This document shows positions 55,801-64,000 of a stretch of 64,000 bases of DNA, one piece after another. The position numbers were made by a program. Within the stretch, counting starts at the first letter, position 1, and every line of letters begins with the position of its first letter. The stretch lies in the NCBI RefSeq assembly GCF_056712565.1, contig NZ_CM160072.1; one strand, written 5' to 3'.

Positions 55801-58800
55801 GACGCACTGAACAGGGCAAAACAACAGGCGGGTAACGACGATCCGTACGGGGACGGGATACCGTTTTAATTCACAACAGCGAACAGAGTAATTACAGGGG
55901 AAGGCATGACAAAGCTGACCATAAACAGAAAACCGAAGGGCATTTACGGCACGCCGCAGAAAACAGCACAGGCGGCGCAGCAGCAGAATAAAACCACATC
56001 GGCGCATAAAGTGATGCCAGATAACCAGAACACACAGCAGAAGCTCACAGGAGCAACACCGCGGCGGCGTATGACCAAACAGCAGCGTAAAAACCGCAGA
56101 CGCGTTAACCGTCTTATTGAGCTATGGCCTGAATTATTCAGCCCGGAATCACCTAAGCCGCTTAAGGTGGGGATATTTGACGACCTGATACAGGATATTG
56201 CCGCGAGAGGTATTTCACTCGGACAGGGAACACTACGCGCAACGCTGGCGCGTTATGTGCAGACTCCGCGCTATTACCGCGCCCTGGTAGCTGGTGGCGC
56301 GCGTTACGACCTGAAAGGCCAGCCGTGCGGCGAGGTAACACCACTACAACAGACGCACGCAGGAAAACTACTGGAGGAGATGAATGGAAATAGTAAGAAA
56401 TGATCACGCACATGGTCGCCGTGCAGGTGATCACATTGTGGATGAAATGGCGGAAAAACAAAGAGTTGACATTATTGTCAGTGTCACAGTCGAGAGCGCG
56501 AAGCGCCAAAATAAGCGTATAAATGATCGTTCAGATGTACATGGTGTGATCACTCGTTTACGCCAGACTTTTGTAACTCGTGAAGAGATGATTGAAGCTA
56601 TTGACCAGCATACAGCATGTATCAGCGTCAGGGATATACCGGAGGTCATTGCTAACTACTTCATGATCACCAGACGCCTTTACCGGAGAAAAGACAAGAG
56701 CACGGTTAACCGTCTCCTGATGTCTGATATTCGCGAATACCTGCAAGAAAGGGGCTATGTGAATCCACCAGAACAGCGCTACGGAAGAGTCGGAGGCTAA
56801 CTAAAACCCTGTACCGAAGAGCGGCGGCGCGATGGGGTGAAGTAATGCAGTTGGGAAACTGATAAGGAACGGTATTACATATCAATGCGACGACTGGAAT
56901 GTTCCAGGAAGGCACAGAGGCCACCGAAGCAACCGGATAATTTAGAAGACCTGAAACGGTCGCTTAAACGCACTGAAAAAGAAATGGGGATAGATGGGAT
57001 CGGGAAATCAGTATGGCGTAACTACCAGAAGTAAGCACAGAGCCGGAGCAATCCGGCTTTTTTTGGGGCTGAAATCAATCAATCTGTTTTTGTGATAGAA
57101 ATATGTTTATCTACCACTTTTTCAGATCAATAATGTGCATAGTTTAGTCAGTAAGAGGAAATTGCTGTGAATTGTATTAACGACCTGAACACAGGCGATG
57201 TCAGAGGTGGTTCCGTTCATCTGGATGCACAGACCGTGATGCGCATTAAGCAGTACAGAATCGACCATGTGAACAATCACCCTGATCAGCCATTACCAGG
57301 CGTGGCGCAGATTGTCAGACATGCCGTAAACGCCTGGCTTAATCAGAATGGTTTTGCATCGGGGGGTGAGTAATGAATCGCTGGTACAGCATCAAAGCAG
57401 AGGGACGCCAATGTTATCTAACTCAGGTTTTATGAATTCTGACTCCCGATTCAAAATAGGAGGTTACTAATGCCAGTCGTACCAACAGTATCCGGACGTC
57501 AGGTTGAGAGCCGTGGAGTTCAGTCAGCAGGCTTGCAGACGTTTTCTCAGCCAGGTATTAGTGATGCTTTTGTTCGTGCAGGAGCAGAGGCAATTGATGT
57601 TCTGGGTCAGGCAAAACAGCGTGCCAATATTGCCTTGGTTCAGGAGGCATCCCTTAAACTCAGTCAGACAGGCAGTGATCTGCTGAATAATCCTGAAACA
57701 GGATTGCTTAACCTGAAAGGGAAAAATGCTATTGGAAAAGGCCATGAGTATACGCAGCAGTTTGATGCTCAGGTCGAACAACTGGCTATGTCGCTGCCGG
57801 ATGAACAGGCCCGTAATGCTTTCATGCAGCAGGCACAGCAGCAGCGCATTCAGTTCACTACGCAGGCCGGGCGGTACGAGATCGGGCAAATAAATGCCTA
57901 CGAAGAAGGCCAGTTTCAGGCTACGCTGCTGAACAATGGTAAAAATGCCGCAGCATTGTATGGCGACAACGCCGCATACGTATTGGCTAATAAGCAAACT
58001 TTCCAGCAAATTGAGGAGTACGGCATTGCGCATGGCTGGAGCGACGAGCAGATTCGGGCCAGGAAAATCGAGTTTAAAGAAGCAACAGCAAAAGCAACTG
58101 CTCAAAATGCTATTGGAGCAAACTATCTTCAGGTAAGACAGCAAAACGGCGAGTTAAGCGATACTGCTGCTGGAGCTCGCCGTGCTGTAGCAGATAGTGG
58201 ATCTTCCGATCGTACCCGCGGTATACGCAACAATAACCCCGGCAATCTTGAATACAGCAAAACTAATCCGTGGGTTGGGCAGACTGGTGATGATGGTCGC
58301 TTTGCTAAATTCGAAACACCTGAACACGGTATTCGTGCATTAGGGCGGAACCTGATGTCGTATCAGCGGCAGGGTATTGATACCGTCAGCGAGATAATTA
58401 ATCGCTGGGCACCGCCTACTGATAAAAATGACACTATGTCGTATATCAAAGCAGTGTGCGAACAACTTGGCGTTTCTGCTGATGATCCTATAGATGCATC
58501 TAATCCGGATACCCTGAAGGCGCTTTGTGCAGCCATTATCCATCATGAAAACGGTAGCCAGCCATACAGTGATCAGCAGTTAACTGCAGGTGTTAGTGCT
58601 GCGCTGGGGCTTTCTCAGCTACCGACAAAAAATAAACGTTATACCGGTGTAGCCTGGTTCGATGCTTTAAGTGAATCGGATCAGGCCAGCGTGTTGCGAC
58701 AGACTGATGCACTAGCCAGACAACAGCAGGCTGAATATAAAACGATGCTCGACAGCCAGGTTCGCGATGCGACAGCTGCGTATATGCGTGGCGTTGAATT

Positions 58801-61800: not shown

Positions 61801-64000
61801 TTCTCATCGGCTGGTGAACACAGAGGGGACGTCAGCGTTGATCCAGATACAGGGCAGGTTCTCTCATCCAACAGCTATGACCTTATGGCTGCCAGAGACA
61901 TGGCTGTTGCCAATCCTGAGCTGACTATAGCTCACCCGGAAACCGGAAACCCGACAAAACTTTCTGATCTCCTGGCTGAGTTGGATGAACAGATTAAGAC
62001 AGTCCAGAACGAATCGAAGGTTTATTCTGTAGCGGCAGCGTGCTTCTTGAGGAACCCATAATGAAACAGGCATGTGTTGAAGCTATTGCGCAGACACTTG
62101 GTCGCCAGCCAAAGGCTGATGAGCTGAAAAATATCGAAGATCGTATCAAAGAAGCAGTGCAACATGTGCACAGAAAGAATGCAAAAGAAGGCAAAAGTGG
62201 TATTCCTGATGCTCAAACATACATGGATGCTGCAGAACTGGTACGCCAGCGTGTGGTTCATGATGTGTACAAGAAAAGACAGCGTGTTGCCCAGAATGCG
62301 ATCGCCATCAGTAAAATTACTGACACTCTCGATGCTAACATCCCGCCTGATCAGCAGACACCTGTTAATTTGCAGCAGTTTATTTTTGCTGGCCGACGAT
62401 CGAGAGACAAAGCTGATATCTCCGTTGCTTCTGCTGAAGAGCTTGCAATTGGGGCATATCAGGACTGGTCCCGTCAGCTCAGTGCTGAACTTCTAAAAGC
62501 AGGTGATGACGTCCGCAAATTCTTCGAGCAGAGCAGGGCGCTTGGAGAGCAGCGGTTTCGGAGTGTATTCGACAGGCAGGCGGCAAAGTCTGCACAACTC
62601 CAGATCCTGAAAGAAATTTATGGCGAAGATACCGGGAATCCCCTGGCGAAGAAAATTGCACAGATTTGGAAGGATGTAACAGGCCGTGTTCGTCATGAGA
62701 TGAACGACAACGGCTTTGACATAGGCCTGCGAGAAGACTGGCATACGCCATATGTGGATGATGCTGACCTTATTCGCAATGCCGGGCGCGAAGAATGGCT
62801 GGCATCGTTACCAGTGGCAGAGCAAGCTACAGCACGTCTTTCAGGTCGCCAGCCACCGATTGAGTTTGCCCGCCAGAAATGGGTTGATGACGCTTACAAC
62901 ACGCAGGATCGCAGCAATTACGTTAATCCTGACGGCAGCATTATGAATGACGTCGAGTACCGTCAGGCACTGGAAGCGATCTTTGAAACGAAGGCCACTG
63001 ATGGGGCAAACAAAATTGAGCCCGGTACATTTATGGGAGCCGGAGGAATAAAGAGCCGTGGTTCTCAGCACAGGGTGATGGCGTTCAAGGATGCGCAGTC
63101 ACACTTCGCCTATATGGAGCGATACACTCAGCAGCCGCTGGTGGGGGTGATGATGTCGCACCTGCAATCATCATCCAGGGATTTGGGCGTCGTTAAAGCC
63201 TTTGGTCCGGACGCCGAAAGAAACTTTTCCCTGGTACTGGATCGCATCTATAAGCGCGCAGTAACAGGCGGGAAACGCAAAAAAGAAATGGAGGATGAGG
63301 CCAAATTAGTAGCCCGTATGTTCAACTCAATGGCTGGCCTAAATGGTGTCGCTTCATCGAGTGTGTTCTCTTCAGCTGTTGGTGGTCTGCGTAACCTGAT
63401 GACCAGCGCCATGCTTGGCACCAGCGTACTGACAGCAACCAGCGACCAGGCAATTATGCGGGCAAATGCGCAGGCGCTGGGCTTTACCCGTGGTGGAATG
63501 CGGCTTTCCGTTAACACTATCAAAAACCTGTTTAGTGGAGATGCCAAAAAGGCGAATGCTGAACTCGGTCTGCTGGTGGATTCACATGCTGCTGTGGTTT
63601 CGAAAATGGGCGGGTTTGACTTGTCTCGCGGCATAACTGGCTGGTTCGCAGAGAAGACACTGAAGTGGTCCGGGCTGATCGCTATGGACCGCGCAAACAA
63701 AGCGTCGTTTGGTCTCCTGATGTACAAAAACATTGGCGAGCTGACCAGAAAATTTAAGACGCTGGACGATATGAAAGGAACCGATAAAACCATTCTGGCT
63801 AACAAGGGATGGAGCAATGAGGACTGGGCCATCATGGCAGCGGCAGAACTCAGGCCGATGACTACTGCCGGGCATATGGGGATGACGCCAGACGCGATTT
63901 ACGCTGTGCCCGATAACGTAATCGCCGACATTATGGCAGACCGTATTACCCGGATTCGTGCCGGGAGTGAAAAGGCACTGGCAGCACTTGGAGATCTCCC

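Follow-up and report, generated by a model that had tools for sequence, protein, structure and literature searches.

A podophage-type ejection-protein cassette in a PICI-type island of Escherichia coli

By definition, PICIs lack phage structural and lysis genes (PMC10085698), and the classical members integrate site-specifically (PMC6739421), as does the island described here. Satellites described so far act on capsid size, packaging specificity, late transcription or lysis, or else they build capsids of their own. The cf-PICIs likewise go against the usual definition in having virion structural proteins (PMC10085698); their own genes cover capsid, portal, connectors and terminase, the tails being borrowed, whereas the island here encodes internal ejection proteins only. 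In the literature searched, no satellite is reported to encode its helper's DNA-ejection proteins. In T7 (gp14, gp15 and gp16) and P22 (gp7, gp20 and gp16), these internal virion proteins come from one small operon and, once ejected, make up a conduit for DNA across the envelope, one of them bearing a muralytic domain (PMC8954989). In Salmonella phage epsilon15, gp15 and gp17/16 have been assigned to the packaging/injection device, and the core leaves the capsid to give a periplasmic tube (PMC12391199).

The window, by which we mean the whole 64,000-nucleotide stretch analysed, ends inside a 20.1-kb PICI-type E. coli island integrated at the 3' end of yicC (Table 1). The island lies between yicC and dinD; its attR is ~20.1 kb downstream of attL (L002 33281-33301), and its right end, at dinD, is about 2.8 kb past the window. 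A second copy of the CGTGTACATAGAGGTGTACATAAT repeat sits just inside that end (L002 33197-33220), and the repeat probably serves as an arm-type site for integrase binding. Integrase, AlpA, Icd-like, DUF4222, primase and SSB genes are held in common with the classical E. coli PICIs (EcCICFT073-type, and the island between cspD and clpS in strain BH100), as are the conserved terminator and 68-aa ORF before the late operon and the iteron/cos region at the right end. Three further iteron copies with 21-bp spacing (L002 32659-32716), which may mark the replication origin, lie there beside a cos-like site that is 86% identical over 85 aligned bp to the annotated cos region of phiP27.

Table 1. Island features within the window, left to right
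Feature	Position	Strand	Remarks
attL core, last 21 nt of yicC, CAGATCCAGAATATCGAATAA	46655..46675		attR repeat at 90% identity
Repeat CGTGTACATAGAGGTGTACATAAT	46783..46806		second copy near island right end
Tyrosine integrase, 422 aa	46864..48132	+	different integrase in island copies adjoining tRNA-Gly gene
AlpA-family HTH regulator/excisionase-like protein, 72 aa	49251..49469	+	RefSeq and Pfam family
Three antirepressor-like genes: Rha, AntA/AntB, BRO-N	49544..51528	+	
Replication module: Icd-like, 85-aa ORF, DUF4222, DUF927 primase/helicase	52355..55236	+	primase/helicase 708 aa, phrog_1139
Iteron TTGCGGGTTAT(GCGGG), single copy	55259..55274		directly past primase gene
SSB (140 aa) and ProQ/FinO-family protein (165 aa)	55447..56403	+	
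Intrinsic terminator AGCCGGA-GCAA-TCCGGCT + T7	57041..57065	+	closes replication operon
68-aa ORF (phrog_4934)	57167..57373	+	start of PICI morphogenesis operon
Relic 20-codon ORF	57373..57435	+	recombination scar
Phage-derived leader	57402..57469	+	last 67 nt of gp14-family gene, native AGGAGG ribosome-binding site
ORF1, gp15 homologue	57470..60001	+	843 aa
ORF1 peptidoglycan-hydrolase (muralytic) domain, aa 249-403	58214..58678	+	contains NNPGN (aa 255-259, nt 58232-58246)
ORF2, gp16 homologue	60001..62061	+	686 aa
ORF2 insert, aa ~278-479	60832..61437	+	orphan, low-GC (38%), HEALH at nt 61063-61077
ORF3, gp17 homologue	62061..64000	+	at least 646 aa in window; gene cut by window end

The initial annotation had noted three large coupled ORFs after a terminator and a 68-aa ORF, and these are present as described, both junctions reading ATAATG with the stop overlapping the next start (60001 and 62061). 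In genomes that match the window exactly, ORF3 continues to a position equivalent to 64817, which makes it 918 aa in full. Chance falls far short of explaining three overlapping ORFs of this size (686-918 aa) in one orientation, all with phage homologues along their full length. ORF1 is 80% identical in amino acids to epsilon15 gp15, the two ends of ORF2 are 83% and 74% identical to those of gp16, and ORF3 is 89% identical to gp17; the corresponding PHROGs are 992, 1145 and 684 (phrog_684, virion structural protein). The gene order is that of epsilon15 (gp15-gp16-gp17) and phiV10 (p18-p20), and the overlapping stops and starts are preserved as in epsilon15. This homology identifies ORF1-3 as the internal-virion (core/ejection) cassette of an epsilon15/phiV10-type podophage, genus Uetakevirus. 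An early guess at phage internal-virion or ejection proteins was thus right, and the family left unassigned at the time now has a name. Of the alternatives raised alongside it, neither a tape-measure role nor that of a free toxin/effector found support, with zero matches of ORF1-3 to Pfam, NCBIfam or PADLOC families. No sequence match to the T7 or P22 ejection proteins was detectable; the link to those systems rests on position, on the RefSeq name 'T7 gp14 family' of the neighbouring phage gene, and on the literature.

The sequence features first remarked on were also found. Gln and Ala make up 34% of ORF1 aa 96-235, compared with 21% across the whole protein, and the NNPGN motif falls within a muralytic domain that matches PDB 9vvp_L at 2.5e-38 and 7q47 at 3e-17. 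The HExxH motif of ORF2 is HEALH, at aa 355-359. Hydrophobic stretches do occur in ORF2 (aa 41-59, 129-147, 178-205 and 235-258) and ORF3 (aa 741-761), but they are only of moderate strength, with 19-residue Kyte-Doolittle means of 1.2-1.35, under the usual transmembrane threshold; by the same measure no segment of ORF1, ORF2 or ORF3 reaches transmembrane strength.

The island thereby departs from the PICI definition, three virion-protein genes taking up 7.3 kb of it. Unusual cargo for a PICI-like replicon had been suspected, and the integrase/AlpA/primase core and cos-like site, in the company of no other virion genes, bear this out: neither annotation nor detection found capsid, portal, terminase, tail, tailspike or lysis genes in the island, and gp13, gp14, the DUF1441 gene and terS are absent. 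Where classical PICIs of ~10.5 kb carry a protease-capsid fusion and DUF1441, this island of 20 kb carries an 8.1-kb podophage ejection cassette. It had also been considered that the ORFs might be ordinary structural proteins of a known prophage continuing just outside the window. Their homology to the structural proteins of a known phage is clear, but the rest of the phage does not follow, dinD being so close. Instead of the tail or portal genes that might have lain downstream, small membrane-protein genes follow ORF3, and then the island ends. Small membrane-protein genes also stand 3' of the gp17 homologue in epsilon15 and phiV10, and flanking phage DNA has been retained here. In contrast to Uetakevirus, however, the cassette lies outside a phage, with gp11-gp14 and the portal, capsid, terminase, tailspike and lysis genes missing; ejection-gene loci in three other species do carry the full virion module. 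A defective Uetakevirus prophage, left by deletion, was rejected as an explanation because the backbone matches a PICI instead. Outside the cassette there is no DNA homology to Uetakevirus, and against the epsilon15 early region the backbone gives weak integrase/HTH protein matches only. Between the BRO-N protein of the island and those of Uetakevirus prophages, identity is 45-50%.

The cassette comes from phages whose terminases are annotated as Sf6/P1 PacB type, taken to mean headful packaging, whereas the backbone resembles that of lambdoid cos phages. Because the island keeps PICI-type DNA signals and shows no similarity to Uetakevirus terminase-region DNA, and given these PacB-type terminases, packaging of the island by Uetakevirus is unsupported.

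How the two came together can be read at the left edge of the cassette. The 57041-57065 hairpin was read from the sequence, and a consensus terminator scan did not list it; the classical PICI of BH100 nonetheless keeps the hairpin, its loop and both arms of its stem differing in sequence. In related PICIs the 68-aa ORF (87% aa identity) sits directly 5' of the protease-capsid fusion gene, and it therefore marks the start of the PICI morphogenesis operon. What follows it here is a scar: the PICI protease-capsid fusion gene breaks off after ~30 nt of its 5' end and runs on, out of frame, into the 3' end of a phage core gene of the T7 gp14 family. The crossover between the two genes, each of them truncated, maps to 57399-57404, within a GGG microhomology. 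The phage-derived leader beyond it is 100% identical to the K1-specific Uetakevirus prophage of strain MS15052. From this junction it follows that illegitimate recombination brought the cassette into the PICI morphogenesis slot, directly 3' of the conserved late-operon leader, where it stands in for the lambdoid-type protease-capsid fusion and DUF1441 genes usual in the island family. Out of frame and at microhomology, the joint itself looks accidental.

The captured proteins are not simply those of epsilon15. The island gp15 is a hybrid with a breakpoint near residue 510: aa 1 to ~510 (nt 57470-58996) are of the phiV10/K1-prophage type, 92-100% identical per 50-aa window to a co-resident prophage (L026), and aa ~511-843 are of the epsilon15 type. 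This combination occurs in islands only and is absent from every complete prophage examined. The centre of gp16, in turn, has been swapped for the orphan HExxH insert.

The same chimera is present in 36 of 5,426 complete E. coli genomes, from human, poultry, swine and wastewater isolates in several countries. It comes with two different integrases at two chromosomal sites (yicC, and beside a tRNA-Gly gene), so the island is mobile or modular. Public assemblies list the exact ORF2 protein in 1,478 blocks; each of the ten contexts shown was this island. A resident Uetakevirus-type capsid gene is much commoner in carriers than in other strains: a second match place occurs in 25 of the 36 carriers (69%), against at most 517 of the 5,390 other genomes (<=9.6%), with an odds ratio of 21 (Fisher p = 1e-17) when strains are counted without regard to shared ancestry. 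Apart from island sequence, that search contained only a Uetakevirus capsid gene; in one genome the second place was checked and proved to be this gene. Strain AH19D088, for example, carries, besides the island, a K1 phiV10-type prophage whose virion and lysis genes are all present.

Over 16 copies, synonymous and non-synonymous sites number 133 and 99 in ORF1, 21 and 2 in ORF2, and 29 and 26 in ORF3 (pN/pS 0.22, 0.03 and 0.27, respectively, beside 0.08 for the island primase). Relative to neutral expectation the synonymous bias gives p = 1e-11 for ORF2 and p = 4e-6 for ORF3, and the ratios point to purifying selection, under which all three genes have stayed intact.

Overall, we believe that the satellite may supply ejection proteins that are loaded into Uetakevirus virions, a reading that we hold tentatively, at somewhat short of even chances, and whose mechanism is argued from sequence. 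Consider a cell with both the island and a K1-specific phiV10-type prophage. Upon induction of the island, the ORF1-3 proteins would be made from the PICI late operon and loaded into procapsids of the co-resident phage, the docking part being the N-terminal half of the hybrid gp15, a near-copy of the corresponding half in the resident phage's gp15. The ejection channel across the envelope would then be built from gp16, gp17 and the epsilon15-type C-terminal part of gp15; the muralytic domain of gp15 would cut the peptidoglycan, and the extra HExxH domain of gp16 would travel into the next cell as payload. The satellite would in this way provide, in trans, an alternative to the phage's own ejection apparatus. 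Since conservation extends over all 2,447 codons and not over a docking fragment alone, a benefit to the satellite's own entry and establishment is favoured over pure sabotage. A bolder version, which we regard as doubtful, is that the satellite pirates the podophage at genome delivery, its own complete ejection apparatus replacing the helper's in particles by means of the helper-matched gp15 docking half and bringing in a metallopeptidase-like gp16 payload. Were this so, satellite particles would gain a different entry route (e.g. past helper-encoded exclusion) or anti-defence cargo, and delivery piracy would join capsid resizing, packaging redirection and capsid formation as a new class of interaction between satellite and helper.

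At the same time, an accidental joint that cost both parental genes their ends, and the island the capsid-fusion and DUF1441 genes of its relatives, is also what might be seen if the cassette were passenger DNA: a prophage fragment that happened to replace and disable the PICI morphogenesis module, serves neither island nor host, and is maintained through vertical descent and through gene conversion by resident prophages. Neutral conversion from a co-resident prophage can yield both the hybrid gp15 and its patchy diversity, and the dS of up to 0.23 in ORF1, against ~0.02 in the backbone, is as gene conversion predicts. Two copies are disrupted, one by an IS insertion (TUM9803) and one, a draft copy, by a frameshift; the excised (attP) junction was found in no viral or metagenome contig, which is uninformative either way. 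Polymorphism in ORF2 and ORF3, however, is scattered along the genes and synonymous-biased. No E. coli prophage allele of either gene closer than ~80% nt exists in the 5,426 genomes, so this variation is not importable from known phages. The two integrase/att modules and the diversity of sources and countries also speak against an inert passenger, which we think unlikely.

Another reading keeps the proteins in virions but turns them against the phage. The satellite would still be mobilised by lambdoid cos phages, and the cassette would be a weapon against competing Uetakeviruses: the hybrid gp15 would dock by its matched N-terminal half and bring with it non-cognate epsilon15-type partners, 27-31% identical to the phiV10-type proteins, leaving a defective or mismatched ejection apparatus. 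Satellites are known to impair phage reproduction (PMC6739421), and the cos-like site and iterons common to a classical PICI have been retained. Moreover, the replaced fusion is 57% identical in amino acids to the protease-capsid fusion of lambdoid phages, so the slot already held a structural-protein homologue. The third match place expected from an epsilon15-type resident prophage was seen in none of the 36 carriers; the island's cassette type thus appears to differ from that of the co-resident prophages, as was directly checked in one strain. Yet the docking part of gp15 alone would do as a poison, whereas three full-length proteins are under purifying selection, muralytic domain and HExxH insert included. 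Most carriers, moreover, coexist with the Uetakevirus-type capsid gene, and known defence families gave no matches. We therefore consider interference rather unlikely. Finally, it is very improbable that ORF1-3 are a stand-alone envelope-active module, causing lysis, toxicity or superinfection exclusion in the producing cell through membrane or peptidoglycan activity and not as virion components, since the muralytic domain of ORF1, the Gly/Ala-rich moderately hydrophobic segments and HExxH motif of ORF2, and the small membrane-protein genes 3' of ORF3 must be set against full-length collinearity with virion proteins in preserved order and coupling, segments below transmembrane strength, and no match to PADLOC anti-phage defence models even for the small downstream ORFs.

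If the proteins are loaded into virions, as the preferred reading has it, genome delivery would become a further step of satellite-phage competition, and a chromosomal island could alter what the particles of a resident phage inject. The system is directly testable, for the carriers include sequenced ExPEC/APEC K1 strains with a matching K1-specific prophage, and the natural gp15 hybrid would be useful for mapping the capsid-docking and channel-forming parts of the protein. Should the cassette be inert, it would remain a clear case, resolved to the base, of a PICI capturing a module across families.

The ORF2 insert deserves separate mention as a new candidate injected effector domain. It takes the place of the central gp16 region of epsilon15 and has no other homologues among 1.84 billion representative proteins, and its AlphaFold model (pLDDT 51) is unusable; Pfam metallopeptidase models match neither the insert nor the gp28 segment considered below. 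Its likeness to injected 'polyvalent' anti-defence proteins (P1 DarB-like; Ralstonia phage Gervaise gp28) is weak. It lies with the HExxH...AEE region of a protein of injected type, 4,511 aa long and named 'DarB-like antirestriction'; identity is 37% over 62 aa (database E = 2e-3). The aligned segment sits 60-90 residues past HExxH in both proteins, and the AEE-containing helix of the insert aligns with gp28, where HEMFH stands upstream.

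The three large ORFs encode homologues of gp15, gp16 and gp17 of phage epsilon15, and the suggestion in the initial annotation that they resemble phage internal-virion or ejection proteins is upheld along their length, the middle of ORF2 excepted. By megablast against phage genomes, epsilon15 genes 15-17 match the whole 6.5 kb at ~77% nucleotide identity, and phiV10-like E. coli phages match ORF1 at 90-97% over its first 1.5 kb. Among the proteins, ORF1 shares 80% identity with gp15, ORF2 aligns with gp16 at 83% (residues 1-277) and 74% (residues 480-686) identity on either side of an unrelated middle, and ORF3 is 89% identical to gp17 across all 918 residues; PHROG assignments are 992, 1145 and 684, respectively, and Pfam, NCBIfam and PADLOC gave no match for any of the three. 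In epsilon15, the tail genes gp11/gp12 are followed by internal virion genes gp13/gp14, then gp15-17 and the tailspike. There, a recent paper counts gp15 and gp17/16 as part of a packaging/injection device whose core exits the capsid and forms a periplasm-spanning tube (PMC12391199), and a review places operons of this sort among those for podophage ejection proteins (PMC8954989).

Features read directly from the DNA largely held up. The ORFs are co-oriented, lie behind a terminator and a 68-aa ORF, and overlap stop to start as ATAATG at both junctions; ORF1 has a Gln/Ala-rich N-terminal stretch (34% over residues 96-235), and the HExxH motif of ORF2 is HEALH at residues 355-359. The NNPGN motif of ORF1 (residues 255-259) is explained by its position inside a peptidoglycan-hydrolase domain (residues 249-403; PDB 9vvp_L 'Gp29', E = 2.5e-38, and 7q47 'Endolysin', 3e-17). 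PDB sequence searches brought up nothing credible for ORF2, with one marginal match (E = 0.031), or for ORF3. The reported hydrophobic stretches are present but weak (Kyte-Doolittle means 1.2-1.35), and the proposed likeness to tape-measure proteins was rejected, its sole tie being a muralytic domain in common with PHROG 2276.

The window differs from the E. coli ExPEC XM chromosome at 4 of 18,502 compared positions and matches strain M21170 at 100% over the 12 kb searched, and full-length ORF3 is 918 aa in both strains. The ExPEC XM copies of ORF1-3 belong to an insertion of 20,125 bp that separates yicC from dinD (see table) and whose integrase, AlpA-family regulator and DUF927 primase bear out the PICI-like context noticed earlier. 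A 24-nt repeat is probably the integrase arm site, and ~1.25 kb of non-coding DNA closes the island after the small membrane-protein ORFs. The observation that was to argue against satellite cargo, homology to structural proteins of a known prophage that continues outside the window, was borne out only in part: the homology is there, but no prophage continues around it, the island ending at dinD. Genes for terminase, portal, capsid, tail, tailspike and lysis are all absent from the island. A cf-PICI was rejected on the absence of capsid, portal and terminase genes.

Coordinates of features in and around the island (features beyond the window were read from L002, the ExPEC XM island locus; window coordinate = L002 coordinate + 33,499)
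Feature	Window or window-equivalent	Other locus	Remark
Low-GC stretch	28001-34000		GC down to 33-37%
waaO-rfaP-waaG-rfaQ	33500-37262		LPS core genes (ExPEC XM annotation)
att repeat	46655-46675	L002 33281-33301	21-nt repeat of yicC 3' end bounding the island; left copy at the window position, right copy at the L002 position
24-nt repeat			one just inside each island end; putative integrase arm site
Integrase, 216-aa protein, AlpA-family regulator			island start, in this order
Rha, AntA/AntB, BRO-N proteins	49544-51528		after AlpA
Icd-like protein, DUF4222 protein, DUF927 primase			next in order
TTGCGGGTTAT, fourth copy	55259-55274		directly after primase gene
SSB, ProQ/FinO protein, frameshifted PerC gene, 68-aa ORF			next in order
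PerC-family gene	56809-57034		
Terminator	57041-57065		hairpin then T7
68-aa ORF	57167-57373		precedes ORF1
Left crossover	57399-57404		GGG microhomology
ORF1	57470-60001		843 aa
ORF2	60001-62061		686 aa
ORF3	62061 to past 64000		
Two small membrane-protein ORFs			last ORFs of the island, after the three large ORFs
113-aa protein gene	64814-65155	L002 31315-31656	after ORF3
Palindrome CGTGACATGTCACA		L002 31952-31965	phage-derived right flank
End of phage-derived DNA		~L002 32,030	past ORF3
Three TTGCGGGTTAT iterons	from 66158	L002 32659-32716	21-bp spacing; beyond window
cos-like stretch	to 66428	L002 32848-32929	near iterons; 86% over 85 aligned bp to annotated phiP27 cos
CGTGACATGTCACA in co-resident K1 phiV10-type prophage		L026 4365, 6630, 9640, 24152	
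Endosialidase tailspikes of two phiV10-type prophages		L014 24042-27161; L026 26546-29665	
Capsid fusion of BH100 PICI		L008 14275-16188	

Comparison with a classical PICI, that of E. coli BH100 (10.5 kb, cspD-clpS), shows how this arrangement arose. The two elements have in common the SSB gene, at 90% nucleotide identity, the stretch with the terminator and 68-aa ORF, at 88%, and the iteron/cos region, at 81.5%, and the last of these argues that the probable origin and packaging site of the island are PICI-type rather than Uetakevirus-type (Uetakevirus being the genus of epsilon15 and phiV10). Between the 68-aa ORF and the iteron/cos region, the BH100 PICI instead carries a ClpP-like protease/major-capsid fusion, 57% identical to lambdoid-phage fusions (VT1-Sakai, mEp213), a DUF1441 gene and small ORFs. 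This common form of the family, with its capsid fusion and no portal or terminase, is thus neither a cf-PICI nor a capsid-less PICI. In a three-way alignment of the left junction, the first ~30 nt of the capsid-fusion gene are kept in the island (ATGAATCGCTGGTACAGCATCAAAGCAGAGGG), followed by a crossover at GGG microhomology into the 3'-terminal 67 nt of a phage core gene named 'T7 gp14 family'; this segment, which brings the native AGGAGG ribosome-binding site of ORF1, has a 100% match in the K1-specific prophage of strain MS15052, and the fusion is out of frame, resulting in a 20-codon relic ORF. The right flank includes sequence 92% identical to the region of phage HEMP4 following the gp17 equivalent (by position) and 97% identical to phiV10 DNA that covers the terminator annotated immediately after its gp17 equivalent. 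Taken together, the two junctions indicate that ~8.1 kb of the distal late operon of a Uetakevirus stands in place of ~3.3 kb of PICI morphogenesis genes. The replacement came about by illegitimate recombination and begins precisely where the PICI late-operon leader ends. A Uetakevirus prophage remnant was rejected because DNA similarity to epsilon15 or phiV10 is confined to the cassette and does not extend to the backbone, and the early region of epsilon15 is of a different, lambdoid kind.

The literature searched contains no report of a satellite encoding ejection or internal virion proteins, and on that basis we class the island as a PICI-type satellite with unprecedented cargo. According to an E. 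coli pan-genome study (PMC10121019), Uetakevirus prophages that are intact can be miscalled as PICIs by SatelliteFinder, but such intact prophages differ from the chimeric island described here.

The cargo itself includes an insert, ORF2 residues 278 to ~479, which replaces the Pro/Gln-rich middle of epsilon15 gp16 and has a GC content of 38% against ~50% around it. It is kept in all island copies, where the segregating sites inside it are exclusively synonymous. No match to the insert was returned by a word-indexed protein search or by tblastn against plasmids, and when 1.84 billion representative proteins were searched exhaustively, no homologue emerged, only one 74-aa fragment identical to the query; a single-sequence AlphaFold model (pLDDT 51) was too poor for a fold search. 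The only outside likeness is to 4,511-aa 'DarB-like antirestriction' proteins of Ralstonia phages (62 residues, 37% identical; database E = 2e-3, pairwise E = 1e-9), and each of the two proteins has an HExxH motif 60-90 residues before the aligned helix, which contains AEE. We regard a zincin-like payload domain of injected proteins as a lead rather than a demonstrated membership, because Pfam sees no peptidase in either ORF2 or the Ralstonia protein.

A second chimera lies within ORF1. In 50-residue windows, residues 1 to ~500 share 92-100% identity with the gp15 of a phiV10-type, K1-specific prophage with an endosialidase tailspike, and residues ~501-843 are 82-92% identical to epsilon15 gp15, with just 12-28% identity to the phiV10 type beyond residue 550; identity to the phiV10-type proteins is 29-31% for ORF2 and 27% for ORF3. 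Both gp15 halves are of the same type in all complete phages and prophages examined (phiV10, two K1 prophages, epsilon15 and an E. coli epsilon15-type prophage), and no E. coli genome besides the 36 carriers has the hybrid span. When 4 kb of island-specific cassette was joined to a Uetakevirus capsid gene as a single query, a second match place was found in 25 of 36 carriers, and any match at all in no more than 517 of the 5,390 other genomes (odds ratio 21, p = 1e-17), although strains are not independent samples. The only second place inspected, in AH19D088, is a phiV10-type K1 prophage that has a complete set of virion and lysis genes, its own gp15-17 among them.

Protein identity, the chimeric PICI setting, the junction, the distribution, the constraint and the association with Uetakevirus capsid genes are all demonstrated by the data, and a function is inferred from them. 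What, then, might the cassette do? Consider a cell carrying both the island and a phiV10-type prophage. ORF1-3 would be expressed from the PICI late operon and incorporated into virions of the resident phage, loading through the gp15 N-terminal half that matches it, and the satellite would thereby provide an alternative ejection apparatus with its own payload. This is the reading we favor, though with somewhat less than even confidence.

An alternative is that the cassette is passenger DNA. In its favor are a junction that looks accidental, a gene-conversion pattern and the fact that the PICI has lost morphogenesis genes of its own. Among 16 island copies, ORF1 and ORF2 are intact in all and ORF3 in 15, the broken copy belonging to a draft assembly with several further broken genes; one complete genome has an IS insertion. 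Synonymous and non-synonymous segregating sites number 133 and 99 in ORF1 (pN/pS 0.22), 21 and 2 in ORF2 (0.03), 29 and 26 in ORF3 (0.27) and 27 and 7 in the island primase (0.08), and the neutral expectation is rejected for all four (p < 1e-5). The next-closest E. coli sequences to ORF2 and ORF3 are only ~80% identical and the changes are spread along the genes, so constraint must have acted within the island lineage. ORF1 is patchily diverse (dS up to 0.23 versus ~0.02 in the backbone), which indicates repeated recombination with phage alleles. Among 5,426 complete E. coli genomes, 36 have the complete arrangement, and their isolates derive from humans, poultry, swine and wastewater. SCU-105, FDAARGOS_1298 and GF43 have the part from AntA/BRO to cos (98% nucleotide identity) joined to another integrase, neighbouring gene and AlpA beside a tRNA-Gly gene near actS, and in some copies at yicC (strains 3908 and GF4) a GIY-YIG nuclease gene replaces antA/antB. 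An index of public assemblies lists the exact ORF2 protein in 1,478 blocks, and the 10 contexts returned all show the island at one or other of the two sites. Passenger DNA fits poorly with the two integrase contexts and with the bias of ORF2 and ORF3 to synonymous changes, and we consider it unlikely. A scan of genome contigs with ORF3 gave three loci, all ordinary Uetakevirus prophages, and no instance of the island in another species. No excised attP junction was found in viral and metagenome contigs; the PICI-phage junction is present on two IMG/VR contigs, whose names suggest provirus calls from isolate genomes.

The main weakness of loading into phiV10-type virions is that the packaging signal of the island is cos-type and PICI-like, while the Uetakevirus terminase is annotated as Sf6/PacB type and no link was found between it and the island DNA. 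A search of the island for a Uetakevirus packaging signal gave no similarity to the terS region, the shared sequence amounting to one 14-nt palindrome. K1-type Uetakevirus prophages have several copies of this palindrome, placed before terS, behind terL, at the 3' end of the portal gene and behind gp17, and it is unlike the annotated epsilon15 repressor operators (ATTACC-N-GGTAAT). It is the cos-type signal and the missing terminase link that make attractive a different model, wherein lambdoid cos phages still carry the island and the cassette spoils the particles of a competitor. Nonetheless, a poison would not require 2,447 conserved codons, and we judge this improbable. A virion-independent, envelope-active role has the least support and is very unlikely.

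Several further observations concern the island and its surroundings. A sigma-70 promoter scan found none upstream of the cassette. The PerC-family gene is frameshifted in six of six annotated island copies examined in RefSeq, a 49-aa PerC ORF being called in one draft assembly; the gene may be a pseudogene that has been conserved, the frameshift may be programmed, or the annotation may be at fault. Three antirepressor-like genes, for Rha, AntA/AntB and BRO-N, lie in series, and the island BRO-N is 45-50% identical to the BRO-N encoded just downstream of gp17 in Uetakevirus prophages, a likeness that hints at regulatory cross-talk. After ORF3, the gene for the 113-aa protein (31% GC, two strongly hydrophobic segments) is replaced in other island copies by an unrelated 104-aa ORF (WP_000196352.1), and the position looks like a small variable cargo slot where phage gp18 would be. 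The phiV10-type prophages closest to the ORF1 N-terminal half have K1-capsule-specific endosialidase tailspikes and several carriers are K1 ExPEC/APEC strains, so the island may be tied to K1 lineages. The low-GC stretch elsewhere in the window is unrelated to the cassette and partially overlaps the LPS core genes.
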